A stretch of 64,000 nt of DNA from Escherichia phage EK5. The number at the start of each line of letters is the position of its first letter. The stretch's first letter is position 1. Under the pieces are notes generated by a model that did no database searches, had not been told where the DNA came from, and saw only the letters and a list, made by a program, of their open reading frames with translations. Where the stretch lies: sequence record PQ805429.1; one strand, 5' to 3'. A program made the position numbers and the translations under genes. Of the stretch, positions 4,697-58,999 are shown one piece after another.

Positions 4697-5436
4697 GTCG
4701 TCGTCAATCACGGAAAGAATCACGGAAAGACCTTCGTCGGGAAGCACTTGTTACTCGTAAGGGTAAGCGAGAGTATGAAGAGGTGGTTTTAGCAAAGCCT
4801 GTAGTCCCTCAGAACCAGTTTCAGTCTGAGCTACTCAATGCTATTAAGACTAAACAAGTTGTGTTCACAGACGCTCCTGCGGGCTGTGGTAAGACCTTTG
4901 TAATCACTTCCACGGTTATCGATGCACTGAAAAGTGGTAAGATTCAGAAGATCATTCTGAGTCGACCTTCAGTTGGCATGGGCAACTCTCTTGGGTTACT
5001 TCCTGGAGGAATGCGTGAGAAGTTTGAACCTTACCTGATGCCCATCATTGATGTTATTACTCAGCGATATGGTAAGGGGTTCTATGAATGCCAGCTCGGT
5101 AACAGTAACATTGAGTTCGTACCTCTGGAATATCTCCGTGGTCGTTCTTTCAATGATGCTATTGTTATTGTTGATGAATTCCAGAACACCACTAAAGATG
5201 AAGCCTTCTCGATCATGACTCGATTGGGAGAAACCTCTCAGCTGTTCTGCATGGGTGATACTAACCAGCATGATATGCGTGGTCGTGAGAGTGGTCTTAC
5301 TTGGGCTACTAACTTTATTGATGAACATGATCTGTATGAGTTCGCTGAGATTGTAGACGGCGAATCGGATGACATTGTTCGTTCTGGTTTCTGTAAAGCT
5401 ATTGTTAAAGCTATGGAAAAGGAACAAGATAAATGA
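4693..5436 (+). CDS. phoH: PhoH-like ATPase
   Basis: Walker A APAGCGKTF, Walker B IVIVDEFQNTT, PhoH block LEYLRGRSFNDA...MGDTNQHD. Confidence 0.85.
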   Translation: MSRRQSRKESRKDLRREALVTRKGKREYEEVVLAKPVVPQNQFQSELLNAIKTKQVVFTDAPAGCGKTFVITSTVIDALKSGKIQKIILSRPSVGMGNSLGLLPGGMREKFEPYLMPIIDVITQRYGKGFYECQLGNSNIEFVPLEYLRGRSFNDAIVIVDEFQNTTKDEAFSIMTRLGETSQLFCMGDTNQHDMRGRESGLTWATNFIDEHDLYEFAEIVDGESDDIVRSGFCKAIVKAMEKEQDK

Positions 5437-5618
5437 AAGTCGCTTTAGTTATTCGAGATTGTGGTGATGGTTCATCAACCATCGACTTCTACAAAAATAT
5501 CGAACGAGCGTGTTTTGAGTGTGAAGAGTTCAATGAAGACACCTGCATGAATGATGGAGAACCTACTATCATTGACGTTCCTGATGAATTTGTACCACCG
5601 GGAGGGTGGAGTGAGTAA
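5433..5618 (+). CDS. hypothetical protein
   Basis: 61 aa ORF, ATGA overlap with phoH stop. Confidence 0.4.
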   Translation: MKVALVIRDCGDGSSTIDFYKNIERACFECEEFNEDTCMNDGEPTIIDVPDEFVPPGGWSE

Positions 5619-5799
5619 TACTCAAGAGTCAGTAATAGAAGAGATTAAAGCTCAGATAGTTGATAAACTCTCTATCAGAGTTGACTCTAAAGACACCAAA
5701 TGCTCTGGTATACTGAAAATAGAACTCCTCTACAACGGAGAGACTATTTCTTTTGACGAGGTATATGCCTCTGATATTAAATACTTAGCAGAGTTTTAA
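5611..5799 (+). CDS. hypothetical protein (start uncertain, GTG 5611 or ATG 5551)
   Basis: ORF 5551-5799 overlaps upstream gene; in-frame GTG at 5611 follows GGAGGG. Confidence 0.3.
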   Translation: MSNTQESVIEEIKAQIVDKLSIRVDSKDTKCSGILKIELLYNGETISFDEVYASDIKYLAEF

Positions 5800-5808: not shown

Positions 5809-5817
5809 TAATGTATA
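5809..5817 (+). promoter_or_regulatory. TAATGTATA(CT) motif, candidate phage-sigma promoter element
   Basis: Exact TAATGTATACT, 37 nt upstream of ATG 5854; same 11-mer at 12526. Confidence 0.5.
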
Positions 5818-5853
5818 CTCCTTAGTGTACACTGATATATTAAGGAGTTCTAA

Positions 5854-6171
5854 ATGGCAGACCATGTAGGAAAGAGAGATTATGCACAAGAAAGACGTAC
5901 CGCAATTGCCCGTGGTGAAACAGGCGTTGGGAGCAAGAGCGGAGATGCTCAGCGCCACCGTGCACGTCGCATCGTTGAAAAGCGCGATGGAAAAGCTGCT
6001 GTCAGAGGTAAAGATGTTGGACACAAACGAGCTGTCAAGTCTGGAGGCTCTAATGCGTCAAGCAACTTACGTGTTGAATCAGTCAGCTCAAACCGTTCAA
6101 ACGGCGGCAAAAGTGGTGATCGAGCTGGAAAAGCGGCTGGAGCACGCAAAGGAGCTTTAAGCTCATCGTAA
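5854..6171 (+). CDS. small basic Gly/Lys/Arg-rich protein
   Basis: 105 aa; strong RBS TAAGGAG; codon usage (cgt/ggt/gct) matches other likely high-expression genes; flanked by promoter motif and terminator. Confidence 0.5.
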   Translation: MADHVGKRDYAQERRTAIARGETGVGSKSGDAQRHRARRIVEKRDGKAAVRGKDVGHKRAVKSGGSNASSNLRVESVSSNRSNGGKSGDRAGKAAGARKGALSSS

Positions 6172-6175
6172 TATG

Positions 6176-6205
6176 AGGCTACCCAAATGGGTGGCCTTTT
6201 CTTTT
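6176..6205 (+). terminator. rho-independent terminator
   Basis: AGGCTACCC-AAAT-GGGTGGCCT stem-loop followed by TTTTCTTTTAT. Confidence 0.7.
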
Positions 6206-6239
6206 ATATAAACCAAAATAAACTTCTTAGGTAATAAAT

Positions 6240-6494
6240 ATGTCTATTGTAAAAATCGTAAATATTTTTGATGTAACCAGAGATGGCAAGATTGTTAAGT
6301 GGACTTTCACTAACCACCACAACAAATCAAACAAGATCATCGAACGGATGATTGAGATTAACCCAAAAACAGCTCGCACTAATGTAATCCTTCGTGGTGC
6401 TGATGGTAAATTCATTTCTTATAAGAATAAGAACGTAGAAAAATCTTTCCGTGTTGCAGTAGAAAATCTCATCCCATTCCCTAAAGGAGTTTAA
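6240..6494 (+). CDS. hypothetical protein, tandem paralog 1 of 2
   Basis: 84 aa; shares KTART.V.LR...GKFISY......A.E.L.PFP.G with next ORF. Confidence 0.5.
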   Translation: MSIVKIVNIFDVTRDGKIVKWTFTNHHNKSNKIIERMIEINPKTARTNVILRGADGKFISYKNKNVEKSFRVAVENLIPFPKGV

Positions 6495-6495: not shown

Positions 6496-6780
6496 ATGAA
6501 TAAGTTAGCTATGGTACAGATTCGAGATACATACCCTAACCGCCCGGAGCAGAAACCGCGTACTTGGTCTTATCTGTTGGCTGAAAGTAAGACTATTGAC
6601 AAATACGCTGTAGGGATTGATGCTATTCCAACTAGTATCACATTGCTCCCTCACAAAACAGCCAGAACCCATGTGATGTTACGTGATAGTAAAGGTAAGT
6701 TTATCTCTTATCGTGATTCACGAATCAATAATGAAATTAAATCTGCTATGGAATTTTTGATGCCATTCCCAAGAGGTTGA
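6496..6780 (+). CDS. hypothetical protein, tandem paralog 2 of 2
   Basis: 94 aa; same conserved C-terminal block. Confidence 0.5.
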   Translation: MNKLAMVQIRDTYPNRPEQKPRTWSYLLAESKTIDKYAVGIDAIPTSITLLPHKTARTHVMLRDSKGKFISYRDSRINNEIKSAMEFLMPFPRG

Positions 6781-7373: not shown

Positions 7374-9218
7374 GTGAGCAACCCGGACGCTCTTCCATTT
7401 TTGACAGAGATGACTGTCGCTGATATAATCTCTAAGCAAGCAAAGCACGGAGTGAGTTTCAACCGAAGAAATGCTCGGTGGTATGTTCACCTCCTTAAAG
7501 AGATTATTGTTAATATTGACAGAGAGTTGATTCCTCTCTTACCTAAGATGAGATTAGATGGCTCTACTTACATGAAGCCATTTAAGAAGTCTGGAGCTTT
7601 ACAGAAGTGGCCTCAAGCCTATTGTGATAGGGTTGGGCTGAAGAGAGAAGATATTGGTGGAGCTTTCACCTGTGTCGAATACGTAGACTTTGACCCATCG
7701 AAAGATGCACGAGTTAAAGAAGCTCTTATGGATGAGGGCTTTCTTCCTCCAGAGTTTAACGTATCTAAGAAGCCTTGGAATACTTTCGAAATTAAGAAAG
7801 ACATGCGAAAGTATGGAACATACCAAGCATGGTATACTGCTTGGATGCGAGGCAATGCTAAGCAGAAGCAGACAGCCGAGATGGTTGACGCTGATATTAA
7901 GAAGTTCTTAGAAAAGCATTTCAGGTTTAAAACTAAGAATTATATGAAGGCTTACGTATTTGGTTTGGGATTAAACCCTAATCGCCGTAATCCTGTAACG
8001 TTTGATGAGATTAAGAAAGCACTAGCCACATCAAACAAGTGGCCTACAGCTCCTACAAACCTCGAGGAGACTCTTGAAGAAGGGTTAGGGGGTGAGCTAG
8101 GGAGTGTCGGAAGTTTGCTTAAGAGACGCGTTGTAGCGGCTCACAGGCTAGGTCTTATCAGTGGACTCATAGCAAAGGAACGCGAAGATGGTAAACTTTC
8201 GGCAGAAGCTAACAGCTGCGCTACGCCGACTTTTCGATTCAAACATCGTATCGTGGTTAATATTCCCTCCCGTGGTCTGTTTGGTCACGAGTGTCGCAGT
8301 TTGTTTGAGTCTGACTATAACTCAGACAGTGATCACTCTCGTCCTTTCGTTATTACTAACGTTGTTCCTGATGGTTGTTATATACGAAAAGGTACTAACG
8401 TAATTTACGAGAAAGGTAAGCCGGGTAAGAAAGACAAACCTATAGGTGCTTACAAATATTACATACCCGCTGGTAAAGAAGTATTCTTAGGGTATGATGG
8501 TTCTGGACTTGAACTTCGTATGCTCGCTCACTACCTCATTAAAGAGTGTAGAGATATGCTTGCTGAGGCAATTGAAGAGAACAATCCAGCTAAGAAAGCT
8601 CTGGCAGAACGTGGTTTAGCTTCTGCTATTATGTATCGTGATATTCTCCTTGAAGGTGATATCCACTCCCACAACCAGAAACTTGCTGGTCTTCCTACTC
8701 GTGACAACGCTAAAACGTTTATCTATGCATTCAACTATGGTGCTGGCGACGCTAAGCTTGGTTCAATTGTAGGTGGTGGGGCTGACGAAGGTTCAGTGAT
8801 GCGAGCACGTTTCTTAGCAGAGAACCCATGTATTGCAATCCTCATTGATCGTATGACAGAAAAGGCTGCTCAAGGATACTTGATTGGTGTTGATGGTCGT
8901 AAGATTACAATGAGACGAGATGCCACTGGTAAAGTTATGGTTCATAAAGCACTTAACACTCTCCTGCAATGTGCTGGTGCTGTTGTTATGAAATACGCTA
9001 TGATGTTCCTTAACAAGTGGATTGAGAAAGATAAGGTTCGTTGTGCTAAGGTAATTGATATGCACGATGAAGGTCAGTTCTCAGTGAACCGTAATGATGT
9101 ACAGAAACTCAAAGAGCACACCGAGCTTTGTGTTAAGAAGGCTGGTGAGTATTTGAACATGGAATGCCCTCTGGCTTCTGATTGTCAGATTGGACTTAAC
9201 TGGATGCATACACACTAA
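7374..9218 (+). CDS. family A (T7-type) DNA polymerase, polymerase domain
   Basis: GTG start after AAAGGAG; motif A YDGSGLELRMLAHY, motif B RDNAKTFIYAFNYGAG, motif C VIDMHDEG, C-terminus GLNWMHTH (T7 gp5 ends GPNWAICH); no 3'-5' exonuclease motifs seen. Confidence 0.85.
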   Translation: MSNPDALPFLTEMTVADIISKQAKHGVSFNRRNARWYVHLLKEIIVNIDRELIPLLPKMRLDGSTYMKPFKKSGALQKWPQAYCDRVGLKREDIGGAFTCVEYVDFDPSKDARVKEALMDEGFLPPEFNVSKKPWNTFEIKKDMRKYGTYQAWYTAWMRGNAKQKQTAEMVDADIKKFLEKHFRFKTKNYMKAYVFGLGLNPNRRNPVTFDEIKKALATSNKWPTAPTNLEETLEEGLGGELGSVGSLLKRRVVAAHRLGLISGLIAKEREDGKLSAEANSCATPTFRFKHRIVVNIPSRGLFGHECRSLFESDYNSDSDHSRPFVITNVVPDGCYIRKGTNVIYEKGKPGKKDKPIGAYKYYIPAGKEVFLGYDGSGLELRMLAHYLIKECRDMLAEAIEENNPAKKALAERGLASAIMYRDILLEGDIHSHNQKLAGLPTRDNAKTFIYAFNYGAGDAKLGSIVGGGADEGSVMRARFLAENPCIAILIDRMTEKAAQGYLIGVDGRKITMRRDATGKVMVHKALNTLLQCAGAVVMKYAMMFLNKWIEKDKVRCAKVIDMHDEGQFSVNRNDVQKLKEHTELCVKKAGEYLNMECPLASDCQIGLNWMHTH

Positions 9219-18747: not shown

Positions 18748-21700
18748 TCACTCCTTAGGTCGAACTCTTACACGGAGTCTCGATTGACGCTTACTGCGTT
18801 CAAGCTTCTCTGACAATGAGCCACGTTTAATCTTAGGCTTCCCTTCGTCATTAAACTTCTCCAAGAACTGCAAGTACTCAGTACGATTTGTTGTCTTGTA
18901 AGAAGGAATCTTGATATCAGGATTCTCTTCAATCACACGTCTCATCTTCGCTACATCATCCCTACCAAGCAACTTACTCTTAGCCTGTTCAGCTGTAGAA
19001 CCAAAGATTTTCTCCAGTGCTCTAGATTTGTTACCACCTGCGGACGAAGCACCAAGTTTAGCAATGGCAGAGTAATCATCAGCACTAAACCAAGCTACTG
19101 GATTATCACCATACTTCTTCTTGTTTTCAGCAGCAGTCTGCAATGCACGTACAAAGCGACGGTTGTTACCAGCCTTATCTGCACCATGAACCCTGTCTAA
19201 AACTTCAGCCACACTAGCCAACTCATCCAAGCTCTTCCCACTCAAGAAAGCTTTCTCTACTTTATCAGCAAAGACCTCTTCCTGTTGTTTAATGCTTTCC
19301 AAGATATCAGAATTTGCTTGAGATTTTTCATCATCAGGCAGAGCAGAACGAATCTTCTCCATCTCCAATTCTTCCTCTTGCAGTTTCTTAATATCAGAGT
19401 CAACCTTCTGAGCCTCCTCAATAGCCTTCCTAGTATCCGCATCCAAGTTATCAAGCTTACCTTCAGTATCTCCAGTAACCTTAACAATCTCTTTCTCGAT
19501 AGGAGTCATTGATTCGTACTTCTTAGCAAACTTCTCAACATCAGCTTCGATACGAGAACGAGCATTCTGATGTTCAGTAGGAGTCATAGGTTTCTCAAGA
19601 AGTGCATAACGGTTGTCCATATAGGAACCAGCAAACGCTTCAGCATCCTCTCTAGATATGCCCTTATCTTCCATAGTACGCATCAGGCGGCGATGAATGT
19701 CATCACGTTGACGTTGTACTGCCATAAGATCATTCTCACGCTCTTGGGCCGCTTTAAGCTCTTCACTGCGCTTAACTCTCTTGTCCACATCAAACTTACG
19801 GTTCATCTCTTCCGCTTGCTCGTACATCTTGTTCCACTTGGCCTGACGAGCATCTTCCTCTGCATCAGTTAAACGACGCTGACGATCAAGGTAATCTGAC
19901 TCGGCGTTGTGGATACGTTCAATGTAACTACGGAACTTCTCTGGAGGAACTGGAGAGTTCTTGTCATGGTGAGCAGCCAACTGTTTCAATGTACGAGATT
20001 CCTGAGCCTCACGAACAGGTTTAGGTAAACCTTCCATCATCTTCTCAATCTCACTCTTCTGAGCTGCAATAGCCTCTAAAGTTTTACGTTCATTCTCAAC
20101 AGCAGCCTTAGCATCTGAACGAGCCTGAGCCTTTTTCCTGAGGGTAGCAAGACGTTCTTCACGAGCCTGTAAGTGCTTAGCAGCAGCTTCGTATTGAGAG
20201 TTCTTGTTAGCTTTGTTGAAGGCATTCACTTCTCTGTTGTAGGTGTTAATAAACCCATCCCAAATATCCTTCATCTGACCAACTTCCAAAGCCTCTTCCC
20301 TACCAGCCTTCTCTGAAGATTTAAACTTCCCATCTACAAAGTCATTCATCAGCTTACGCATAGCATCTTTCTGAGCAGGACGTAAAGGTTCTGAATCAAT
20401 CAAAGCATCAATCTCAGACTGAAGCTCTTTCTTCTGATCAACCAGTTTAGGAGCATCTTTCTTATCGAAAGCTTTGTTCTCTTCTAGAGCTTGTTGGTAC
20501 AGTCTATCAAACTCATCCTCACGCTGCTTCTGATACAACCTTTCAGCACGACGTTTCAGACTATCCAAGTTAGTTACGTTCCCACCTAAACCTTTCTCTT
20601 CAGCACGTAATGCCTTAGTAGCAATGTCTTCTGGCAGACCACGTTCTTTAACCCATTCAGCAAAATTAGTTCGTACAGTGTTGTTCTTAGCAGTAGCAAT
20701 ACCTTGCTGAGAGGCCAGCTGGTTACGAGCCATTTCTTCATGACGTTCAGTGTTGATAGCATTATCTTCCTGACGAATACGACGCATCAGTTCCTTAGGA
20801 TCGCCTTTATAAGCCAAGAAGTTTTCAGCAGTAGCTTTAGCTTTAGCAGCCTTAGAGTACAGAGAACGAGCAAAGCGTTCTGCACGATCTTTAGTAGCCT
20901 GACGAGCAGCACTAGACATAGCAGCTAAACGTTCTACACCACTTGCCGGTTTAACGTCCTGTACAGCTTCCTTAGGAGCTTTAGGAGCACGAGCAGGTAA
21001 TGGCTCAGCTTTGACTGTTGGTTCCTCTACGGTTGGTTCTGGAGCCTGTGCGGCCTCTTCTTGAGCACGTTGCTGTTCCATTGCACGACGCTCCTCTAGA
21101 GGGTTACGAGCAGGGAGAGGTTCAGCCCGTGGAGCTTGTTCGACCGGAGCTTCTTGAGCTGCTGCTGCCTCTTCTTCAGCGCGACGCTGTTCAGCCTGAC
21201 GGATAGCGCGTCTTTGCGCAACTAAATCACGAGCTGTGAGAGGGGTTTCTTGAGGAGTAGAAGAAGGAAGATTTTCTTCCGTCACAGTACTAGAAGAAGG
21301 CTCCCGAACCGGTTCGGTTTCCACGTCATTTTGCGTCTTAAATTTAATGTCATCAACAACTGGTTCTTCTTCCATCTTAGCACGAGCTTCATCAGCAGTA
21401 GATTTAGCACGAGCAACTTCCAAATCACCACGAGCCAGAGAGCGGATAGCTTCACTATTAGACTCTTGTTGCTTAACACGTTGAGAACGGGCACGCTGAG
21501 AAGAGAAGCGATTCAGAGCATATTTAGCAGCACCGAGAGTGTTCATCACCAGACTAGGAGAAGAAGCCTCACGGAATCCATCATCAGTCAAGGAAGTCCA
21601 ACCACGATCTTGGTTGCTCATGAATTTAGCTGTATTGTTCAGAGTGTAAGCATCTTGAATAGGATTAAAACCTTCAGGCATACCTTTCAGTTTCTTCAAC

Positions 21701-23169
21701 CCACCAATAGCTTTCTTCATCTCTGGAGAAACATTATCAGCCATCTTCTGTAGTTCAGCAGCTTTCTCTACAAAGTTATTAAAGTCTTCACCATCACGAG
21801 CTTTGAATCGATTTGCTTCATTGTAGAAAGTCTTGTAAGCATCAATGAAATCACGGTCAGCTTGTGTACGATTCTTAATATCAATCGGACTACCAGTAAA
21901 ATCACCAGAAGCTCGGAGAGAAGTTAATTCACGGTCTAGGTTATCTAGAACATCTGTAAGAGCTTTCGTATTGTCTTTGGTGTAATCAGCCATTGCATCC
22001 TTCATAGCAACAGCCTGCTTCTGGTTGTGCTCGTTGTCAGCGAATGCTTTACCACGAGTCTTAGCAGGAGAAGCTAAAGGGTTGAGGCCCGGAATGTTGG
22101 AATGTTCTTTCTGAACGGAAGCAGCTTTCTCAGCACGAGCTTGGTCAGTATTAAGAATACGCTGAGCAGCAGGAGAGTCTACAGCAACAGCATCTGTAAT
22201 ACGGAATCCATTCTCATCCAGAAGGTTCAGAGCAGAAGCAGCGTTAGCAGTTTCAGCTTTAGAGTAAGCTTCTTTCAGTTCATCAATATTCTTAGCACTA
22301 CGAATTAGTTCATCATCAGCAGCAATATCAGTCTTCGCATACTCTGGAGTGTTCTTGAAGACAGTAGAATCCGGACGGCTAATCAAACCATGAACCCCAC
22401 CAACTGCACCACCGAATGCAGCACCCATAGCCCCTTCTTCGATAACACCTTCCAATGTCTTAGCTAGATCGTTGTCGTCGCCATACTTGTTCTGAACTTC
22501 AGCAGCACCCACAAGAGCACCACCTTTAGCACCAGCCACTGCGTTACTAGCAACGTTCTGACCAATACGTCCAAGTGTGGACTCAGCTGTACCAACAGCA
22601 CCCGGAAGGATTCTCTGAGCCGCATAGTTAGCACCACCAACTAAGGCTGCATCTAGAATAGACTTATCCTCTCCCTCTTCAGGGGTTTGGTCTGCATATG
22701 CACGACCTGTCTCACGACCTGCGATGATAGCAGCAGCAGCCAATGGGTTAGCAACTGTCAAACCGATATCACCAGCAACGCCAGCATACTGACCGACAGT
22801 TTTACCAATCCCATCCTCAATCTTATCCATACGTTCTTTCAGAAGGTTCTGAGAGTTCTCTTGGATACGCTTACCATAACTAGTTTGTGCTCCAGCTAGA
22901 TTCTCACCAATCTCAACTAAACCACCAATACCTTTAGCAGCACTAGCTGCAATATTTGCACCACCAGATTGAAGAGCATTTGACACACCTTGAGCAAACT
23001 CACCTATAGCACCACGTTCTTCTTGTTGTGGTTGTGCTACTGGTTGTTCCTCAGGAATAGAGCCACCTGCTGCCTTATATTGTTCTCTCATTTGAGCTTG
23101 TTGCTCCGGAGAGGCATTCAGATACGCAGGAGCTTTGGAAGCTTCTTCCCACGGTTTAATGTTAGCCAT
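18748..23169 (-). CDS. large internal virion (ejection-type) protein
   Basis: ~1473 aa; start moved to ATG 23169 with RBS AAGGAG; Gly/Ala-rich hydrophobic N-terminal third, long Ala/Glu/Arg-rich coiled-coil middle; last gene of structural block. Confidence 0.45.
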   Translation of the reverse strand: MANIKPWEEASKAPAYLNASPEQQAQMREQYKAAGGSIPEEQPVAQPQQEERGAIGEFAQGVSNALQSGGANIAASAAKGIGGLVEIGENLAGAQTSYGKRIQENSQNLLKERMDKIEDGIGKTVGQYAGVAGDIGLTVANPLAAAAIIAGRETGRAYADQTPEEGEDKSILDAALVGGANYAAQRILPGAVGTAESTLGRIGQNVASNAVAGAKGGALVGAAEVQNKYGDDNDLAKTLEGVIEEGAMGAAFGGAVGGVHGLISRPDSTVFKNTPEYAKTDIAADDELIRSAKNIDELKEAYSKAETANAASALNLLDENGFRITDAVAVDSPAAQRILNTDQARAEKAASVQKEHSNIPGLNPLASPAKTRGKAFADNEHNQKQAVAMKDAMADYTKDNTKALTDVLDNLDRELTSLRASGDFTGSPIDIKNRTQADRDFIDAYKTFYNEANRFKARDGEDFNNFVEKAAELQKMADNVSPEMKKAIGGLKKLKGMPEGFNPIQDAYTLNNTAKFMSNQDRGWTSLTDDGFREASSPSLVMNTLGAAKYALNRFSSQRARSQRVKQQESNSEAIRSLARGDLEVARAKSTADEARAKMEEEPVVDDIKFKTQNDVETEPVREPSSSTVTEENLPSSTPQETPLTARDLVAQRRAIRQAEQRRAEEEAAAAQEAPVEQAPRAEPLPARNPLEERRAMEQQRAQEEAAQAPEPTVEEPTVKAEPLPARAPKAPKEAVQDVKPASGVERLAAMSSAARQATKDRAERFARSLYSKAAKAKATAENFLAYKGDPKELMRRIRQEDNAINTERHEEMARNQLASQQGIATAKNNTVRTNFAEWVKERGLPEDIATKALRAEEKGLGGNVTNLDSLKRRAERLYQKQREDEFDRLYQQALEENKAFDKKDAPKLVDQKKELQSEIDALIDSEPLRPAQKDAMRKLMNDFVDGKFKSSEKAGREEALEVGQMKDIWDGFINTYNREVNAFNKANKNSQYEAAAKHLQAREERLATLRKKAQARSDAKAAVENERKTLEAIAAQKSEIEKMMEGLPKPVREAQESRTLKQLAAHHDKNSPVPPEKFRSYIERIHNAESDYLDRQRRLTDAEEDARQAKWNKMYEQAEEMNRKFDVDKRVKRSEELKAAQERENDLMAVQRQRDDIHRRLMRTMEDKGISREDAEAFAGSYMDNRYALLEKPMTPTEHQNARSRIEADVEKFAKKYESMTPIEKEIVKVTGDTEGKLDNLDADTRKAIEEAQKVDSDIKKLQEEELEMEKIRSALPDDEKSQANSDILESIKQQEEVFADKVEKAFLSGKSLDELASVAEVLDRVHGADKAGNNRRFVRALQTAAENKKKYGDNPVAWFSADDYSAIAKLGASSAGGNKSRALEKIFGSTAEQAKSKLLGRDDVAKMRRVIEENPDIKIPSYKTTNRTEYLQFLEKFNDEGKPKIKRGSLSEKLERSKRQSRLRVRVRPKE

Positions 23170-23207
23170 AACGTCTCCTTTTATAAATAAAAATGTCCTA
23201 CCCCCTA

Positions 23208-23216
23208 TATACATTA
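23208..23216 (-). promoter_or_regulatory. TAATGTATA motif (minus sense)
   Basis: Reverse complement of TATACATTA, 39 nt upstream of ATG 23169. Confidence 0.45.
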
Positions 23217-49804: not shown

Positions 49805-50677
49805 ATGTCTAAAGTAGCAATTAACCACTTGAACAAAGCAAACGAAAGCCTTTCCTCTTTAGGCTTAACCGTTGGTAGTCCTGATGCGTGGATGGAAAAC
49901 GAAAGTGCACGTAAAGGATTCAAAAACTCAATCATGTTGGCTTGCTTGATCATCAATTCTACTGCGAACGCTTTACAGTGTGAAGATGAAAGCACGTTCA
50001 AAGAGAACGGTTTTACCGATATGCAGGACGCTATTAATTGCTACATTCAGGCTAATTTAGATAGCTGGAATCAGAAAGATTGGCCTGAGTCGTGCCGTGA
50101 TGTGAAAGCTGAATTATCCCGCTTGTCTGTCATGGTTGAAGCATGGAACAAGAAAAACAAGAAACAGCCAATCAAGCCTACTGTTGCAAGTAAGATTATG
50201 AAGTCTGTTAATCTGGCAAGTTATGCACTGGTTGCAGCTATTGGTGTTAGTGCACTGGTCACATCTCTTTCTGATAAGGCTATCGCTAGTCCTACTCCTG
50301 CAACTGATGCCGCTGATGTTTTCGCTAGTTCCATCAATAAGGGTTGGATGATTTGCAACGGTGCGGATAGTGATGGAAGTACTATTGTATTAAAAATGAA
50401 GTTTAGCAACGTAACTAATGATGGCGTTCTCTTTCAGTCTAAGACACTAGACAATCAGCCTAACAATGATCTAGTTCTCAAGCGCACCGATAGTGACTCG
50501 GATATGGTTACATTTGGCACTGTACAACGTTACGAAGACGTTAAAGCTGTAACCAATCTAGTGAGTTATGGTCCGGTTAATGAGTCGATGATCGCCACTA
50601 CCGTTTATAATAACGCTGATAACGCTGTTTATACCGTTCACGTTAATTTAGCCAACTGCATTAAGGCTAGTAAGTAA
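49805..50677 (+). CDS. hypothetical protein with internal TM segment
   Basis: 290 aa; hydrophobic LASYALVAAIGVSALVTSL. Confidence 0.5.
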   Translation: MSKVAINHLNKANESLSSLGLTVGSPDAWMENESARKGFKNSIMLACLIINSTANALQCEDESTFKENGFTDMQDAINCYIQANLDSWNQKDWPESCRDVKAELSRLSVMVEAWNKKNKKQPIKPTVASKIMKSVNLASYALVAAIGVSALVTSLSDKAIASPTPATDAADVFASSINKGWMICNGADSDGSTIVLKMKFSNVTNDGVLFQSKTLDNQPNNDLVLKRTDSDSDMVTFGTVQRYEDVKAVTNLVSYGPVNESMIATTVYNNADNAVYTVHVNLANCIKASK

Positions 50678-50701
50678 ATAACCTATTTTGGGAGTGTAAA
50701 A

Positions 50702-50953
50702 ATGGCTATCAAAGAAATTAAGTTATCTAATGGCTTTTCTTGTTTTGTTGGTGGAAGCTCTATCCTGTTTAATACACTTGATGGTCAGATAATCTTGCCT
50801 GTTATCACTTTTTGCAGGATGGAATATCAGCCTCTTAAAGATTGGCTAGCCTTTGCTGATTTCGAAATTACCCGCGATGATTTCAGATCAATCTATATTG
50901 ACGGTGATTTGTCGCTGGCTAACCTGCTTAATCATGGTCTGATTGGGGGATGA
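50702..50953 (+). CDS. hypothetical protein
   Basis: 83 aa, RBS GGGAG. Confidence 0.4.
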   Translation: MAIKEIKLSNGFSCFVGGSSILFNTLDGQIILPVITFCRMEYQPLKDWLAFADFEITRDDFRSIYIDGDLSLANLLNHGLIGG

Positions 50954-51159
50954 TACCAATGGGAAATGAAACTATCGCGCTAATTGATACGCATAATTAC
51001 GGTGGCGTTACGTTATCCTTTGATGAATCAGCCGACGTTGGCTATTTGTCTTTTCTTTCCAAAGGTGAGATACAAAATATACGCTTTCCTATTGTCTGTT
51101 TAGTGCAAGATTATATAACCGTTGGGAAGTATTTAGCCCAACGCGGGATTCTCCTGTAG
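50950..51159 (+). CDS. hypothetical protein
   Basis: 69 aa, ATGA overlap. Confidence 0.4.
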   Translation: MIPMGNETIALIDTHNYGGVTLSFDESADVGYLSFLSKGEIQNIRFPIVCLVQDYITVGKYLAQRGILL

Positions 51160-51315
51160 CTGGAAGAAGTGGAACAGATTAGCGTAGCATTTTTTGGTGA
51201 GGATAGCAACCAATGATTCATGATTATTTTTGGCGTTGCTTGTTCGTTGTTACAGTGGCGTTATTCGTCGCTGATATGCTTTATTCTTACATTCTCTAAC
51301 TAAAGGTTTATTATC

Positions 51316-51681
51316 ATGGGTGTTATCAAGTTTGTAGTGAAAGTATTTGTAGGCTTCTTTCTGGTTGTTCTCCTGTTAGGTGTCCTGCTGTCATCTATGG
51401 GTAGCGTTAAGGCTGCAACATTTTCCCCTGATACGGTTGACGGTTTACAGTGCACCTATTTGATAGAAAACTATGAAACTGGTAAAAAGTCACCTAAAGT
51501 TATTATTTTACATGTGAATGATTTCGAACATGTACAATCATACGATAAAACTATTCAACTGGTAAATGAAACTACCGGTAAACAAATTACGGTGGATCAC
51601 TTGATGCGCTCATCGTTGACGCTCTTTGATGAGTCCATGAATGAAATGGCATCCGGTAACGGTCAATGTGTAAATCCATAG
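51316..51681 (+). CDS. exported protein (signal peptide)
   Basis: 121 aa; N-terminal FVGFFLVVLLLGVLLSSMGSVKA. Confidence 0.45.
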   Translation: MGVIKFVVKVFVGFFLVVLLLGVLLSSMGSVKAATFSPDTVDGLQCTYLIENYETGKKSPKVIILHVNDFEHVQSYDKTIQLVNETTGKQITVDHLMRSSLTLFDESMNEMASGNGQCVNP

Positions 51682-51757
51682 GCTTAATCTTTCTCCTGTA
51701 TTGTGCCGTAGTCATGCCTATGGTCATAATTTATCTGATTCTCTAATCCTTCCTGTA

Positions 51758-51784
51758 AGCCTCCTAGTGAGGCTTTTCTCTTTT
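51758..51784 (+). terminator. rho-independent terminator
   Basis: AGCCTC-CTAGT-GAGGCT followed by TTTCTCTTTT. Confidence 0.65.
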
Positions 51785-52589
51785 ATGAGGTGATTGTATG
51801 CCTTACTCCCTTTTAGCTCGTTGTGATGCGTTTTAGGCCGCTAAATATCGCTTTACAAGCCGTTTTCTATGATGTATCGCGTGCGCCTGCTCTTTTACCT
51901 TCCTATAGTGAAAAAGTTTAAAATAATTTGCTTTACCCTATTGCAACCTCATCTGATTAGCGTATACTTCATTTCATCGGGTACGATGTAAAACATACAA
52001 GGCAAGAAATTGCCCCGCTCTTTAAAAATATGATTTGTCTTACGGGTGGCGGCGACGTCATTACTATAAGGCGCTCAGTTAATCGGTAGAATTGATTCCT
52101 GATTCATACGTGACGCAGGCGGACAATAAGCAATATCAATAAGCCTTATTTGTTCGATACTTTCAAAAGATTAATGCTTGAAAGCGCACTAGATTCCCTG
52201 AAAGACAAATCAGACTTATCATCTTGCCCTTTCGCATAGATTCACGCGAGATAAGGGAAAGGAATTAAAAGAAGATGATAAAAAGAGTTGCAAACGTGGT
52301 TAAAGTAGTCCATACTAACCACAAGTTAGCAAAACATCGCTAACTAGTTCCCAAATCAACGTATCGCGGGAAAGGTGGCACATAGTGCAGCGATTAGTTC
52401 AGGTGTAGGCGGCCTGTTAATGAATCAGTAAGCCTTCAATGTGACAGTGATTAGCAGACACTTTAAAAGGCTAAACGCTCTTTAACAATATGAGTCATAA
52501 GTTAAGCCTCACCGCTTAATCTTCAATCAAATAAAGCTGATTGATATATCCTCCCAATAGCGGGAACGACGAAAAAGATTAAAAAGCGG

Positions 52590-52618
52590 TTGACAGCGAA
52601 AACAACATGATTCATAAT
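52590..52618 (+). promoter_or_regulatory. near-consensus sigma70 promoter inside ORF-free region
   Basis: TTGACA-17 nt-CATAAT. Confidence 0.5.
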
Positions 52619-53541
52619 GAGCACTCACTAAGCAAATCATCGCTTCAGTGAAAAGCGTAACAACGGCTAACAGTTGCATAGTGTGAGAAAGCACACTGAT
52701 AGATTTACCGCTCTTTAATAATTTAAACATTCTCCTATATCGGTTGAATATGCTTGATGATAATAACCATCGGAAAGCATACCAGATAAAACGGCGTAAA
52801 ACTCCCTAAATTATCAGGGTAAACAGTTTTACATTCCCTTACTGGAAACGTCACCATTGATAAACGGATTCATTGAGTACACGCAAAGACTTGAGCTAAT
52901 CGCCCACGGTTAAGGGTAGCGGCGGTCATTGCTAACACGGTGCTACAGTGAAAGAAGTTAATCAGGGTAGGCAATCCCGACGAATTAACGCTCAATTGAG
53001 AGCGGCGGGGAGTGGTTAAAAAGTGGCAAATTGCTATTTAACAATAAGGTTTAGTGTGAACGTTTACAATGTGAACGGCTTGAGATTCATCTTATGATGA
53101 AAGTACATAGTCGGTTTATGTAGTAAACTTGCCGAAAGATATAAAACGTCGGAACATTAGACGGTCAATGACTCTTTCGCAATAGTATCCCGTAGTGGGC
53201 GATGACTAGCGATTGAGAGTTGATATAAAAGGATAGGCGAGAGCGAAAGCAAAGTAAACGATATTGCCGACGGTTACAATAACGTAACTAATTAGAGTCG
53301 GACGCACTGCCTTATTGTGATGATTGATCATCGCTATCAGGTCGGCTTCGTTTATAGCGACTAATTAAAGATACCAGATGAAACATCACGGATAAGGGGG
53401 CGGCAAGGTTAACTCCTGATAAGACCGCCCCGCTTACCTATAACTACTTAACAACGAGTGGTTATAGTTAAGTTAATAGTGACTTAAACAAGCTCATAGA
53501 GAGCGGGGCAATAGCGCCCTTACAATTGAAAGGTGAATATT

Positions 53542-54441
53542 ATGGCTAAAATCTTTACTCTGGTTAACGAATCCGGTTTTAATGCTCTGGCTAACAACAT
53601 TCGCAGTAATAACGCGGCGATCAAACAAGATGTTTCTAACTTCCTGTTAGGTCATTTGCAGCACTTTCGTAGCAACGGTAAGAAGTTAGATGTATTGCAG
53701 GCGGCGGTTGACTTCCTGTTAACCGAACGTTTCCGCGATATGGATGTTATTGCCACCGCGATTACTTTCTTAACTCCTATCAAGTTTAACACCGATGCGG
53801 CAAATGGTCGTAAAAAGTGGATTAATCTGGAAGGTGAGGCGAAAGCTAAAGAAGATGCGAAAGAAGCGCAAATTAAGGCCAAAATGGAACAAAACCGCGC
53901 TCGCTGGTCAAACGCTTTCGAAAACTTTGCATTAGGTCGTGCAATTGAAGTGGATAATCCTAACTTCTACAAAGGTTGCAATGACAACGTGGCGGCACAC
54001 CTGCAAATTCCGGCGAAAAACAAGGAAGATTTTAATCAGGATATTTACGCTTTGGTTGAACGCTTGAATGCAATCCGTATTGAAGCCAAATTACTGGCTG
54101 ATGAGCGCAACGGCGCAACCAGCGATAACACTATCGCCCTGAGTGAAGAAGTTGGGAAGGTTAAAAAGTCCTTTGATTCACTCATCAAGAAAATCACGGC
54201 CTCGACGGTAGCGATCTCGGATGATTATCTGATGAACGCATCAAGCAAGGAATTAGAATCACTCGATTCATACGCTGATGAAATGGAAAAGACTGTTGCA
54301 GCTATGCAGGAGAAGTTAGAAAGTCTGCGCGGTCGTATCTCTTCAACGGTTGCTACCCGTAGCGAACAAGCGGCGAAAGCAGAAGAGGAAGAAGTATTGC
54401 GTAAAGCGGCTGAAATTATGGCGGCACGTCAAGCGGCATAA
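53542..54441 (+). CDS. hypothetical protein (coiled-coil C-terminus)
   Basis: Start moved to ATG 53542 after AAAGGTG. Confidence 0.5.
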   Translation: MAKIFTLVNESGFNALANNIRSNNAAIKQDVSNFLLGHLQHFRSNGKKLDVLQAAVDFLLTERFRDMDVIATAITFLTPIKFNTDAANGRKKWINLEGEAKAKEDAKEAQIKAKMEQNRARWSNAFENFALGRAIEVDNPNFYKGCNDNVAAHLQIPAKNKEDFNQDIYALVERLNAIRIEAKLLADERNGATSDNTIALSEEVGKVKKSFDSLIKKITASTVAISDDYLMNASSKELESLDSYADEMEKTVAAMQEKLESLRGRISSTVATRSEQAAKAEEEEVLRKAAEIMAARQAA

Positions 54442-54464
54442 GTAAGACAATTTAAATAAACATA

Positions 54465-54499
54465 AGGCGCTATCTTAACGGGTAGCGCCTTTTCTTTTA
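54465..54499 (+). terminator. rho-independent terminator
   Basis: AGGCGCTA-loop-TAGCGCCT followed by TTTCTTTTAT. Confidence 0.65.
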
Positions 54500-54552
54500 T
54501 CAGTGCATTGATTCAGTGCATTAATCAAAGAATCTAATTAAAGGTGACGATC

Positions 54553-54771
54553 ATGTTAATTACACATACCACGATCTATAGGAATCTTGTCAACGGTCAA
54601 CATTACCGACTATCTAAAAAGTATGGCGTTGAATGTAAATGTGTTATTACCGGTGAATGGTATCCGTCGCCAATGAAGATTGAAACGTTGGAACGTGAAG
54701 CGATCAGCTATATTATCACGCAAGAAACAACGTTAGGTCGTATCTTAAGAAAGTTGGGATTGAGAAAATGA
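54553..54771 (+). CDS. hypothetical protein
   Basis: Start moved to ATG 54553. Confidence 0.4.
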   Translation: MLITHTTIYRNLVNGQHYRLSKKYGVECKCVITGEWYPSPMKIETLEREAISYIITQETTLGRILRKLGLRK

Positions 54772-54992
54772 TATTCAGTAGCAATTTTGGCAAGTGTCCT
54801 ATTTGTGAGAAACATCGCAGCACGGGAAACCATCGCAAATGTAGTAAGATATTACAGCGCCAACGTGATAACAAACATTGGGATACTGTACACACTAACC
54901 AGCGTAAAGAAGAAGTTAGGAAAATGGCTGTTAAAGCGTCATTTGCTCAATCCACCCGTATTGAACACATTCAAAGGTATCAAGCATTATGA
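54768..54992 (+). CDS. small basic Cys/His protein
   Basis: 74 aa; CPICEKHRSTGNHRKC. Confidence 0.4.
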   Translation: MIFSSNFGKCPICEKHRSTGNHRKCSKILQRQRDNKHWDTVHTNQRKEEVRKMAVKASFAQSTRIEHIQRYQAL

Positions 54993-55198
54993 TCACTAAC
55001 ATTTCAGAATTTAAGAAAGCACCTTCCCGCTTGTTAGGCCGTCGTGTTGTATATCTTTACAGCAATAAAGGTAAATGTACAACTGGACGAATTACAACGG
55101 TGAGTAGTGCTAACAAGAAACTGTTAAAGTTATGCGTAGCTATGGATGACGGTACAATCCTGCTACGCAGTTGGAAATCGTTTAGTTTACTAGATTAA
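54989..55198 (+). CDS. hypothetical protein
   Basis: 69 aa, ATGA overlap. Confidence 0.4.
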   Translation: MITNISEFKKAPSRLLGRRVVYLYSNKGKCTTGRITTVSSANKKLLKLCVAMDDGTILLRSWKSFSLLD

Positions 55199-55267
55199 GT
55201 TATTTGTTCAAGCCTATCGCCTTGATGGGCTTGCCCGATATAACTTATCACTGAAAGGAATAAGATT

Positions 55268-55711
55268 GTGGCTAAATCTAAAATCAGCATGAAGGGCGGG
55301 CGTTGTTTTGCTATCTCTGAACTAGAGAAAGAGAAACCGAAGGCAACTAATCACGTTAGTAAGCGTAGTTTAAAACGTCGTGCTGCAAAGGCTGAGGCTG
55401 AATCCCATGTTCCTTCCAGTGTGGCAAAGCGTGTAGGCCATCGTGTCCATCGGGCTGATGCGTTGTTGTTGGCTGATCATAAACGTTCTTTGTTAAAGAG
55501 CGGGGGAGCTAAAACAGAAGAGGAGAAGAAGTTAGAAATCTTCTGTAATGGTCGCACCCGTGGTAAACAGAAGTTTAAAGGTAGCACGAAAGACCCGCAG
55601 GCTTTCCCTAAGACAAGCCAGTGTGCACCTGATGTTTTCTACGCAGATAGTAAACACAAGTGGGGCGTTGAAAAATACATTGACCCCATCAAAGAGGCAA
55701 GGGTTAAGTAG
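55268..55711 (+). CDS. basic hypothetical protein
   Basis: 147 aa, GTG start after AAGGAA. Confidence 0.4.
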   Translation: MAKSKISMKGGRCFAISELEKEKPKATNHVSKRSLKRRAAKAEAESHVPSSVAKRVGHRVHRADALLLADHKRSLLKSGGAKTEEEKKLEIFCNGRTRGKQKFKGSTKDPQAFPKTSQCAPDVFYADSKHKWGVEKYIDPIKEARVK

Positions 55712-55791
55712 TAGGAATATAGCCCCCTCTTTTAGTACTATGACGCTCTTTCTGTAGCGTCGTGCCCTCTCCCCATTTGAAGCTTCCGCAT

Positions 55792-55814
55792 AGCCGCCTT
55801 TGAGCGGCTTTTTG
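55792..55814 (+). terminator. rho-independent terminator (first of tandem pair)
   Basis: AGCCGC-CTTTGA-GCGGCT followed by TTTTTG. Confidence 0.55.
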
Positions 55815-55875
55815 CGTTGCTGTAAGTGCATTTGCGAGTGTATTTATAGCAACGGTCATGTGTTGCTTTCAGGTT

Positions 55876-55901
55876 TGCCCCGGCTACGGCTGGGGCTTTT
55901 T
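55876..55901 (+). terminator. rho-independent terminator (second of tandem pair)
   Basis: GCCCCGGC-TACG-GCTGGGGC followed by TTTTTT. Confidence 0.65.
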
Positions 55902-55928
55902 TATGTCTACTGTATAGGAATCTATGAA

Positions 55929-56609
55929 ATGAAAGCAATTGTATTATCCTCAATCCTAGCTCTGTCCATAATGGCATCGCCTGTTTTTGCTAAAAGTGGA
56001 AACAATGGCAATGGCAATGGAGGTTGTGGTGTAGGTCAATCTACCAATGGTTGCGGTATCGGAGATTGGTTTAAAGGTGAAAAAGGTGATCAGGGAGAGA
56101 AAGGCGACACTGGCGCTAATGGCATTGATGGTAAAGATGGCATTGATGGAGAACAAGGCGCTCAAGGTGAAAAAGGTGATTCTGGTGCAGATGGTAAGAA
56201 AGGCGAAACTGGCCTAACTGGTGCAGCAGGTTTGAATGGCGTTGACGGATTAAATGGCAAAAACGGTAAAGATGCAGATATGTCTGCCGTTAATGCTAAC
56301 GCCAAATCCATCAAAGCTCTGGAACAATCCACCAATAAACGTTTTGCTTCTTTGCAAAAACAAGTAGACCGTAACCGTGATCATGCCTCTGCTGGTATTT
56401 CTGGCGTGGCTGCAATGGCTAACATCCCGCAAGTAAGTCAAGGATCTGCTTTCTCTGTTGGTGCTGGGGTAGGTGCTTACGATGGTGAATCTGCTCTTGC
56501 TATTGGTGTTAGTGCTCGTTTCAATGAAAACTTAGTAACTAAAGCATCAGTGGCAATGACTTCAGAGAGTGACGCTGTTCTGGGCGCTGGTGTAAGTTAC
56601 GAGTGGTAA
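55929..56609 (+). CDS. collagen-repeat protein with YadA-type C-terminal anchor (trimeric autotransporter-like)
   Basis: Start moved to ATG 55929; signal peptide MKAIVLSSILALSIMASPVFA; ~22 uninterrupted G-X-Y triplets; coiled-coil neck; C-terminus ...ALAIGVSARFNENLVTKASVAMTSESDAVLGAGVSYEW matches the YadA anchor ending. Confidence 0.7.
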   Translation: MKAIVLSSILALSIMASPVFAKSGNNGNGNGGCGVGQSTNGCGIGDWFKGEKGDQGEKGDTGANGIDGKDGIDGEQGAQGEKGDSGADGKKGETGLTGAAGLNGVDGLNGKNGKDADMSAVNANAKSIKALEQSTNKRFASLQKQVDRNRDHASAGISGVAAMANIPQVSQGSAFSVGAGVGAYDGESALAIGVSARFNENLVTKASVAMTSESDAVLGAGVSYEW

Positions 56610-56616
56610 GATAGTG

Positions 56617-56645
56617 CCTCTCCCGAAAGGGAGGGGTGTTTCTAT
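56617..56645 (+). terminator. rho-independent terminator
   Basis: CCTCTCCC-GAAA-GGGAGGGG followed by TGTTTCT. Confidence 0.6.
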
Positions 56646-56719
56646 AAGCATCTTTTCGAGGGTGTTTATTGAAACAACAAAACAGGAGGTAGCAAGTTCT
56701 GATAACAACGGCACAGCTA

Positions 56720-57109
56720 ATGTTGACATTGACTATTTATTATGAGGCAGGGAATCAGCCAACCGCATGTAAGGCTTTAGTTGCGGATACCGTGATAAAT
56801 AGAATGGCCCAACGAAAACTGACCGCTGAACAGGTGATAAGACAGAAGAACCAGTTTGAGTGGATTCCGGTACTATTAAAACAGGAGAAACCTTATAAAC
56901 GTTATGTAAAGCTGATTCGTGATAAAAATCCGATGACTAAGCAAGCCATTGGAGAAAGCGAGCGACTTGCTAAACGTGCCCTTAAGAAGAATTATGTTCC
57001 GCTGTACAGTGGGACTTACTTTCAGAGTAAGAGCGAAGGGGTGCCAAAATGGTATGCCAATCCTATGTATTGTGGTGATTTAGTGTTCGATAATAGCTCT
57101 AGGGAATAA
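56720..57109 (+). CDS. cell-wall hydrolase, SleB/CwlJ-like (Hydrolase_2)
   Basis: IYYEAGNQPTACKALVADTVINRMAQ resembles the Hydrolase_2 N-terminal motif GEA..E...G..AVA.VI.NR. Confidence 0.55.
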   Translation: MLTLTIYYEAGNQPTACKALVADTVINRMAQRKLTAEQVIRQKNQFEWIPVLLKQEKPYKRYVKLIRDKNPMTKQAIGESERLAKRALKKNYVPLYSGTYFQSKSEGVPKWYANPMYCGDLVFDNSSRE

Positions 57110-57308
57110 TCACTAGTGCCAGATTTGACAAACTAAATTCCTTTATAAACCAACCACTTAGTAAATTTATCGAAAAAGATGGTAGTATTCTGGGACTATG
57201 GGTAATGCTCTGTATATAGACCCTTTGAAAATTTCTTAGAAAATAAGTTTACTAAATATAACTTACTTAAATAATATTACTTTTAATCTCTGATAAAGGG
57301 TAAATAAT

Positions 57309-57605: not shown

Positions 57606-57831
57606 TATTAAATCTGATTATACAATGCTTCGATTAAATAACATGAAGCCGGGCGTTCTGTTTGAGCGTAAAGAATCCCTTTACATTAGAACCGACACAT
57701 TGTACGCAGACAATTATGTCAACTGTGTTGATGTGGTAACTGGAAAGCTCATGCCTTTTAAACGGGATGAAGTCTGCCAAGTACGTAGTGATCTCCACAT
57801 AACTAACATAGGGGCTAAGGATGAAGATTAA
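57595..57831 (+). CDS. small protein, paralog family member
   Basis: GTG start after AGGAG; shares family pattern with 57821, 58079, 60721, 62146, 62394, 62642. Confidence 0.4.
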   Translation: MKVNIKSDYTMLRLNNMKPGVLFERKESLYIRTDTLYADNYVNCVDVVTGKLMPFKRDEVCQVRSDLHITNIGAKDED

Positions 57832-58297: not shown

Positions 58298-58305
58298 CAT
58301 CGACT

Positions 58306-58995: not shown

Positions 58996-58999
58996 AGAG

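Follow-up and report, generated by a model that had tools for sequence, protein, structure and literature searches.

Gene 58 of the phiEco32-like phages very probably encodes a divergent, cysteine-free HNH-fold nuclease domain, and we propose, with a confidence that stops slightly short of even, that its product is an enzyme directed by a motif to nick or bind phage DNA. The gene was analysed in a 64,000-nt stretch of DNA from Escherichia phage EK5 (sequence record PQ805429.1; this whole stretch is hereafter called the window), where it occupies positions 5854–6171 on the plus strand, within a compact expression unit at 5809–6205. The window is a phiEco32-like Kuravirus: over the 2.4 kb surrounding this unit its identity is 99.8% to Escherichia phage ev_rybdy3 and 93% to phiEco32 (Kuravirus, Gordonclarkvirinae). 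The open reading frame (ORF) is the counterpart of phiEco32 phi32_58, labelled a hypothetical protein in the record, and is placed between a PhoH-like gene and the DNA polymerase gene. Gene 58 and its promoter had been catalogued already before the present analysis. New are the assignment of a cysteine-free HNH fold, the polymerase-linked core-gene status, the finding in five further genera of a motif that is nicked in other phages, and a coupled active-site change that accompanies a reduced set of conserved sites.

HNH-like fold of the gene 58 product

The gene 58 product has 105 residues, of which 25 are lysine or arginine, and an isoelectric point (pI) of 11.46; its composition is biased (Gly 16, Ala 15, Arg 15, Ser 14, Lys 10), with no cysteine and a single aromatic residue. 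A first-pass annotation, made by a model from the letters of the sequence, had described a 105-residue basic low-complexity protein. The length, the basic character and the compositional bias were borne out, but the low complexity was not, since 25 positions are invariant across 37 relatives and the predicted fold is ordered. Instead of a generic basic protein, the evidence points to a divergent cysteine-free HNH domain in which the catalytic histidine and both asparagines are invariant.

Searches of Pfam, NCBIfam and PDB sequences with the single protein or with a family profile returned no significant match, and no sequence similarity of the family to any PDB chain was detectable. The protein matches PHROG 4590, a family of unknown function, at 8e-41, and gives faint matches to HNH PHROGs. 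In a large protein collection 201 relatives were found at E ≤ 0.01; nearly all of the 120 that were listed are 90–125 residues long, and a few are named HNH or McrA by their source. A profile search of 1.84 billion representatives yielded only 387 clusters at E ≤ 0.001, almost all of them small stand-alone proteins, and no recognisable partner domains were found in the long domain-bearing proteins P0220, P0221, P0247 and P0254. When members were scanned against Pfam one by one, 27 of 37 matched HNH (PF01844; best E = 5e-4) and 14 of 37 matched HNH_3. One distant relative, P0209, scores above the Pfam HNH gathering threshold (24.1 versus 21.4 bits) and is matched by the family profile at 6e-8.

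The AlphaFold model, with a predicted local distance difference test (pLDDT) score of 77, comprises two N-terminal helices, strands at 54–57 and 72–75, a helix at 77–86 that carries N80, and a basic C-terminal helix, and has the topology of a beta-beta-alpha-metal domain. H57 lies at the end of strand 1, as expected of the general base, and the two asparagines are placed as in HNH enzymes, N71 on strand 2 and N80 in the helix. A Foldseek search against the PDB gave nothing significant; among the matches listed, 18 of 19 were HNH domains. All 113 aligned family sequences, the window protein included, share H57, N71 and N80, and position 56 is D in 97 of them, G in 7, H in 5 and E in 4. The conserved D-H...N...N arrangement of the family therefore matches the HNH enzyme pattern. 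An N-terminal motif, ERxTAIxRGETGVGSKSGDAxRHRARR, is conserved even above the H/N/N pattern. Cysteine is absent from 110 of the 113 sequences, and the family lacks zinc-binding CxxC pairs, which are typical of many HNH subfamilies but not universal. The HNH assignment is made because many weak signals agree and the catalytic pattern is invariant, no single score being strong.

The window protein lacks the acidic ligand that directly precedes the catalytic histidine in D-H dyads such as Cas9 D839-H840 and endo VII D40-H41. In the HNH protein of the phiEco32 clade G56 stands for D56 and E75 for R75, and no other conserved position has a clade-specific change. Across the family, residues 56 and 75 vary together: 79 sequences have the D-R combination, and only 1 of the 16 with a residue other than D at position 56 has R at position 75 (Fisher p = 8e-9, uncorrected for phylogeny). 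The G56/E75 pair recurs independently in the unrelated family member P0125. The combined D56G and R75E change looks like the relocation of a carboxylate rather than decay. Related His-Me nucleases (I-PpoI and Serratia nuclease) work with a single Asn metal ligand, and because no more than this is needed in those enzymes, nuclease activity of the window protein is possible by analogy.

Replication-module linkage and the nick-associated motif

By tblastn, the family was found in 253 phage records (Pseudomonas 105, Escherichia 94, then Aeromonas, Proteus, Salmonella, Cronobacter, Vibrio and others), as compared with 242 records holding a full-length homologue of the exonuclease-less family-A DNA polymerase. 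At an identity of at least 80%, gp58 and the window DNA polymerase are found in 98 records each. In about two dozen loci with enough flank, the family gene lies 0.7–3 kb upstream of the polymerase gene; across these loci it is 55–76% identical versus 34–56% for the polymerase, and the small intervening genes are not conserved. A published SU10 comparison agrees, with the family gene in the same place and conserved above the polymerase. The gene–polymerase synteny spans Kuravirus, Grimontviridae, Lahexavirus and the LUZ24-like phages. In LUZ24 the family member gp26 comes directly after the polymerase exonuclease subunit, in Vp_R1 the family gene follows PhoH, and in SeKF_80 and LAh_8 it stands among thymidylate synthase and ribonucleotide reductase genes. 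Divergence of the family gene tracks that of the polymerase. These comparisons indicate that the replication module includes the family as a core component, inherited vertically. That a protein of ~100 residues is conserved above the polymerase would be explained if it were a sequence-specific enzyme locked to many genomic sites.

LUZ24 gp26 was also considered as an intron endonuclease; this was ruled out, the intron endonuclease being gp35, between polymerase parts II and III. Family members bear wrong names in public records, 'cytidyltransferase' for the one in SeKF_80 (L006 2977–3318) and 'contains transmembrane domain' for LUZ24 gp26 (L004 3514–3783), and within the matched 2.4 kb some gene is called 'Cas8 protein' or 'autotransporter adhesin' in some Kuravirus records. 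No paper naming gp58 together with phiEco32 was found in the literature searched.

A candidate target site is suggested by phages with nicked genomes. Phage tf carries fourteen localized single-strand nicks at 5'-TACT/RTGMC-3', all on one strand (PMC3517423), and Rembedalsseter carries thirteen at WACTRTGAC, with 61 related Pseudomonas phages showing enrichment of that motif (PMC11780129); neither study identified the nickase or the purpose of the nicks. The tf and Rembedalsseter groups, both LUZ24-like and nicked, both encode the gp58 family. Whole genomes were scanned for over-represented strand-asymmetric words with the HNH gene oriented plus and with LUZ24 as the positive control. The strand counts below give the HNH-gene strand first and the opposite strand second.

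LUZ24 (control): TACTATGAC 7:0, the top 9-mer; TACTRTGMC 9:0
Photobacterium phage PhCF1.2: TACTRTGMC 6:0
Salmonella phage SeKF_80 (Moazamivirus): TACTRTGMC 12:1; ACTACTGTGA the top 10-mer, p about 1e-23
Cronobacter phage A24 (Crifsvirus): TACGGTGAC 8:1
Aeromonas phage LAh_8 (Lahexavirus): ACTACGGTG 9:2, the top 9-mer
Cronobacter phage vB_CsaP_009 (Privateervirus): ACTACTGTGA 7:0, plus three TACGGTGAC with none opposite

In 6 of 6 whole genomes tested with a canonical family member, a TACKRTGAC-type motif is strand-specifically enriched and is the top or near-top asymmetric word; first-order Markov simulations give about one motif copy per strand per genome. The nick-associated motif is thereby found in five further genera beyond the tf-type phages. 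TACGGTGAC predominates in A24 and LAh_8, and both variants occur in vB_CsaP_009. The consensus extends to acTAC(T/G)RTGACg, and the sites are concentrated in the early region. In 8-kb loci around the family gene, taken from IMG/VR contigs, the motif occurs 35 times on the same strand versus 4 times on the opposite one. T7, in which endonuclease I is present and the family absent, has the motif at 1:0, which is chance level. When IMG/VR was scanned for exact occurrences of TTTAGTACTRTGACGC, 14 stretches were retrieved, with three Kuravirus genomes accounting for 6. TACTGTGACG, TACTATGACG and TACGGTGACG are predicted substrates of the candidate nicking enzyme.

The window holds three copies of the motif, which are putative target sites:

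55736–55745, plus strand: motif copy 1, TACTATGACg, candidate target site; intergenic, early region; flank identity to KBNP1711 84%
63038–63047, plus strand: motif copy 2, TACTATGACg, candidate target site; intergenic, early region; flank identity to KBNP1711 82%
21280–21289, minus strand: motif copy 3, TACTGTGACg, candidate target site; inside the large late ORF 18748–23214; flank identity to KBNP1711 73%

All three read TACTRTGACg with a pyrimidine-rich 5' flank. Their positions correspond in the window, phiEco32 and KBNP1711, and between these genomes the copies differ solely by A or G at the degenerate R. The chance of 27 fixed bases surviving at those flank divergences, calculated from the flank identities, is about 0.002; the three copies of the phiEco32 clade are not random leftovers. 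Each intergenic copy has a hairpin within about 50 nt on its 3' side (55792–55809, terminator-like, and 63070–63092), and no sigma-70 promoter was found at these two sites.

Candidates for a replacement strand-specific motif in the phiEco32 clade were rejected. AGCATTCTG, TTCTGAGC and ACCACCAG are an effect of codon usage, confined as they are to the late block of minus-strand genes. No 9-mer in the window is more over-represented than AAGCTGATT (9:0 versus 0.36 expected), which is not a simple codon effect because it spans both gene-orientation blocks:

12105, 15081, 17758, 26214, 26915, 39137, 49648, 52534 and 56909, all plus strand: sites of AAGCTGATT

It occurs 7:0 in phiEco32 but 3:1 in KBNP1711, where it is not conserved, only one of the sites being kept.

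We advance the following mechanism as a well-motivated hypothesis. The asymmetric motif TAC(T/G)RTGAC(g) would be the site at which the gene 58 protein binds DNA of its own phage. Relatives with a canonical active site would nick one strand at that motif, and in the phiEco32 clade the remodelled protein would serve only the three positionally conserved copies, whether by cutting or by binding alone. Both the nicking by the family and the link between protein and motif are what we infer from comparing sequences, and action of the gene 58 protein at the TACKRTGAC motif is, in our judgement, not quite an even proposition. The wider reading is more tentative, and we hold it to be possible but below an even chance: the gp58/LUZ24-gp26 family would be the nickase behind the localized nicks of LUZ24-like phages, the same system would operate in Grimontviridae, Lahexavirus and the Photobacterium phage, and the phiEco32 clade, its carboxylate moved from position 56 to 75, would have three sites. 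DNA binding as such is likely. The first-pass annotation had suggested a DNA-binding or nucleoid-targeting factor; the first half of this is reasonable for a nuclease fold of pI 11.5, but in place of the host nucleoid the evidence points to the phage replication module and a conserved phage DNA motif.

Several observations weigh against the proposed action at the motif. The window protein itself has no Pfam HNH match at E ≤ 1 and stays below the gathering threshold, and the metal-ligand Asp is missing in the phiEco32 clade. In each of the window, phiEco32 and KBNP1711 the motif occurs 2:1 (plus:minus in the window), which is chance level and unenriched and differs from the many copies on one strand seen in tf; copy 3 lies on the opposite strand, unlike the one-strand rule of the other phages. 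HNH residue 30 (G/K) had been predicted to covary with position 4 of the motif (T/G); this held in five genomes, failed on vB_CsaP_009 and was rejected. The association of protein and motif is confounded by the shared ancestry of the whole replication module, and part of the gene 58 role may be motif-independent, because purifying selection is strong with only three sites. The strong expression signals of the gene, set out below, suit a stoichiometric binder better than an enzyme, and high expression would be unusual for a catalytic nuclease. Finally, a T7 endonuclease-I-like gene (Pfam PF05367) is present in 6 of 6 motif-rich genomes, with no homologue detected in the phiEco32 clade. Endonuclease I is a real confounder, because it fits the pattern of motif-rich versus motif-poor genomes as well as the active-site change does.

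That pattern also bears on an unlikely though appreciable alternative, in which gene 58 encodes an accessory replication or recombination nuclease, structure-specific or non-specific and unrelated to the motif, which trims intermediates, degrades host DNA or replaces endonuclease I while another protein serves the motif. Endonuclease I correlates equally well with motif richness across nine genomes; the family gene is syntenic with DNA polymerase and nucleotide-metabolism genes in every lineage and is under purifying selection in the phiEco32 clade although the motif is unenriched there; and HK97 gp74 and Gme HNH have little sequence specificity. An accessory nuclease would, however, leave unexplained both the conservation of a 100-residue protein above the polymerase and the three fixed motif copies in a clade without endonuclease I. 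The confounder was weighed toward the HNH protein because T7 has endonuclease I yet carries the motif at chance level, because endonuclease I (T7 gp3) is a junction-resolving enzyme with no known sequence specificity, and because the three copies are conserved. These copies are kept in a clade without endonuclease I, and motif and HNH gene therefore persist together there.

A non-catalytic but abundant DNA-binding protein, with the HNH fold as a scaffold, would come near the idea of the first-pass annotation; it would coat, bend or mark phage or host DNA stoichiometrically. The high pI and the 25 basic residues agree with such a role, as does the loss of the metal-ligand Asp in the phiEco32 clade, and abundance is suggested by the strong promoter, ribosome site and terminator, a terminator or hairpin right after the gene recurring in several families as expected of a highly expressed unit. 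A scaffold is nevertheless unlikely: His57, Asn71 and Asn80 are invariant even in the phiEco32 clade, D56G is coupled to R75E with the same pair arising independently in P0125, which suggests relocation and not decay, and single-Asn metal sites suffice in I-PpoI and Serratia nuclease.

Should gene 58 indeed encode a motif-directed nicking or binding enzyme, localized nicks are predicted in the virion DNA of Grimontviridae and Lahexavirus, with 6–12 one-strand copies each in the motif-rich phages. Knowledge of site-specific nicks in phage DNA goes back about 50 years, to T5, with phiKMV-like and tf/LUZ24-like phages added later. The family would provide a small, easily purified candidate for the tf-type nicking enzyme, together with predicted nicked genomes in new phage families and a natural active-site variant that has fewer sites, and a 100-residue cysteine-free nickase with an asymmetric target of ~10 nt would be useful as a nicking enzyme. 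At the modest end, a highly conserved 'hypothetical' gene of phiEco32-like therapeutic phage candidates gains a fold and a probable substrate, and a spurious ORF is removed.

The gene 58 cassette, its reading frame and its surroundings

The stretch 5809–6205 is almost certainly a real gene and expression unit. It is made up as follows, with one overlapping frame:

5809–5819, plus strand: TAATGTATAct, core of a putative middle promoter dependent on gp36, the phage sigma factor (consensus match and SU10 identity)
5842–5847, plus strand: Shine-Dalgarno sequence AAGGAG, 6 nt 5' of the ATG at 5854; invariant in 10 aligned relatives
5854–6171, plus strand: gene 58 homologue, 105-residue basic cysteine-free HNH-like protein; stop codon 6169–6171
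6175–6206, plus strand: intrinsic terminator; stem 6175–6184 / 6189–6198, loop AAAT, then a T-run
5882–6160, plus strand: overlapping 92-residue ORF in the +1 frame, not a gene by the codon, substitution, randomisation and relatives tests

The promoter motif, strong ribosome site and strong terminator that the first-pass annotation had recognised, and the compact self-contained unit that they form, are all where it had placed them. TAATGTATA at 5809–5817 (plus strand) has five copies in the window versus 0.85 expected, and none of 100 shuffles reaches five. The published consensus of gp36-sigma middle/late promoters is tAATGTATAtA (PMC4281155), and the AATGTA element of gp36 promoters is centred at -11.5 (PMC12276001); TAATGTATAct agrees with both. 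The stretch from promoter to ribosome site is identical to an entry of SU10 Table S2, the middle promoter 'between CDS56 and CDS57', and CDS56 is the gp58 homologue in the published SU10 table. From the promoter to the Shine-Dalgarno sequence the block is invariant in Kuravirus and Nieuwekanaalvirus despite a differing upstream flank or gene, and it is still recognisable in 88–90-kb relatives.

The terminator, a GC-rich hairpin followed by a T-run as in intrinsic (Rho-independent) terminators, consists of a 10-bp stem with six GC pairs and then TTTTCTTTT (-18.1 kcal/mol, z = -3.7; 1 of 200 shuffles folds as well). Across Kuravirus the stem is kept and the loop is variable. In 17 of 44 loci, drawn from several phage families, a terminator-like hairpin of unrelated sequence stands directly 3' of the gene, and in LUZ24-like phages a GC hairpin directly follows the family gene. 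Host RNA polymerase carrying gp36 would start a few bases 3' of TAATGTATA, the near-consensus ribosome site would drive translation of gene 58, and the terminator would close a monocistronic middle-gene transcript of ~380 nt. Judging by the strength of these signals, expression of gene 58 is presumably high.

The overlapping ORF 5882–6160 had been set apart in the first-pass annotation by its G-ending codons, and G indeed occupies 48% of its third positions versus 18% in long window genes. The check by codon-position statistics that had been proposed alongside came out for the basic frame. When 26 long window ORFs are used to train a codon model, the basic frame scores +26 bits versus -15 bits for the overlapping ORF, and the synonymous codon-choice score of the latter (-0.33 per codon) is far outside the range of real genes. 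In eight Kuravirus-group loci, the variable sites number 20/9/43 on codon positions 1/2/3 of the basic frame, and synonymous and nonsynonymous codon differences number 434:177 in that frame versus 47:554 in the alternative one. Gene 58 is under strong purifying selection in the phiEco32 clade.

A real product of the overlapping ORF, or translation of both frames, might be suspected from its 96 open codons and from a translation that resembles an amphipathic helical protein. Stops in the +1 frame are rare, however, because only 13 of the 106 codons of the basic frame have T at position 2, and an open run at least as long arises in 10–13% of codon permutations or synonymous resamplings. In AT-richer relatives 4–9 stops break the frame, and no homologue or family match was found in family searches. 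Since the codon model, the substitution pattern, the randomisations and the stops in relatives all favour the basic frame, the ORF is a by-product of composition and not a gene; the chance of its encoding a product is negligible.

The region of gene 58 is an insertion hot spot. Some relatives have an extra ORF of ~97 residues between the gene and the terminator (L003 1680–1973, which is WFI101126; SU10 CDS55), in KBNP1711 (L052 39285–41910) an inserted ORF splits the DNA polymerase gene, and EcoN5 has an HNH homing endonuclease in the gene 58 neighbourhood. Such surroundings, the HNH fold and a self-contained cassette whose promoter and terminator are kept as a block while the flanks differ would suit a free-standing, selfish HNH homing endonuclease gene with its own promoter and terminator, as would a gene GC content of 52% versus 42% for the window. 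The presence of the gene is not sporadic, however: it is found in essentially every genome of the subfamily (98 versus 98 records, as above) and keeps the same syntenic place across phage families, with a divergence that tracks the polymerase. Nor does the product have an extra DNA-binding domain. The high GC content is due to Gly/Ala/Arg codons; at third positions GC is 33% and resembles that of the genome, by which a foreign origin of the gene was ruled out. A homing endonuclease is accordingly very improbable, and a vertically inherited enzyme of the replication module is preferred.

Upstream of the promoter, two small plus-strand ORFs (5433–5618 and 5551–5799) share an overlap of 68 nt. 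They are annotated variously, as one 333-nt gene in phiEco32 and as two genes in Paul and WFI101126, and are absent from NJ01, ECBP2 and L008, so that the gene 58 cassette is seen to keep its promoter whatever lies upstream. Directly 3' of the terminator are tandem plus-strand paralogues (6240–6494 and 6496–6780), each matching PHROG 6814 at ~1e-36, whose conservation between relatives (35–99%) is far below that of gene 58. The DNA polymerase ORF 7374–9218 contains, close to its 5' end, a perfect sigma-70 consensus promoter (7401–7429, plus strand; TTGACA and TATAAT with a 17-nt spacer, and a TG upstream). On a larger scale, the window has a minus-strand gene block at 18748–49329 and a plus-strand block at 49805–64000, and is circularly permuted relative to the phiEco32 record; as the early region borders directly on the late structural block, the ends of the physical genome or a terminal repeat should lie near 49.3–49.8 kb. 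A lone tRNA gene in the early region (60069–60141, plus strand; Rfam 71.9 bits), probably the tRNA-Arg annotated in phiEco32, is the sole Rfam match of the window, with no group I intron or other RNA family found near gene 58.

Comparison with known systems

Among known proteins, phiEco32 gp58 (phi32_58, ABY52859.1) is 100% identical to the window protein, SU10 CDS56 and PHROG 4590 belong to the same family, the SU10 middle promoter also being the same, and LUZ24 gp26 is 61% identical. All of them are annotated as hypothetical or of unknown function, unlike the HNH assignment made here. The small stand-alone HNH nicking enzymes Geobacter Gme HNH (PDB 4H9D), phage GVE2 HNH (5H0O) and HK97 gp74 have zinc-binding Cys/His ligands, lie beside terminase genes and assist packaging (PMC7672466). 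The gp58 family differs from them in having no Cys, a distinct conserved N-terminal motif and a place in the replication module. The HNH nicking homing endonucleases I-HmuI and I-BasI of Bacillus phages are intron-encoded, sporadic and about 174 residues long, with extra DNA-binding modules and a target of ~24 bp, whereas the gp58 family is a core gene, 105 residues in the window, with a motif of about 10 bp.

The motif-rich genomes described here resemble the tf/Rembedalsseter nick system in having the same 9–10-nt motif on one strand in the early half of the genome; phiEco32-like genomes differ from it in having only three copies and no reported nicks. The nick motifs of T5 and phiKMV are unrelated to the tf-type motif. 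The gene 58 unit has the same promoter element as the gp36-dependent middle/late units of phiEco32 and would belong, by homology, to the same temporal class; it differs from other such units in being unusually short, with one gene between promoter and terminator inside a longer middle operon.

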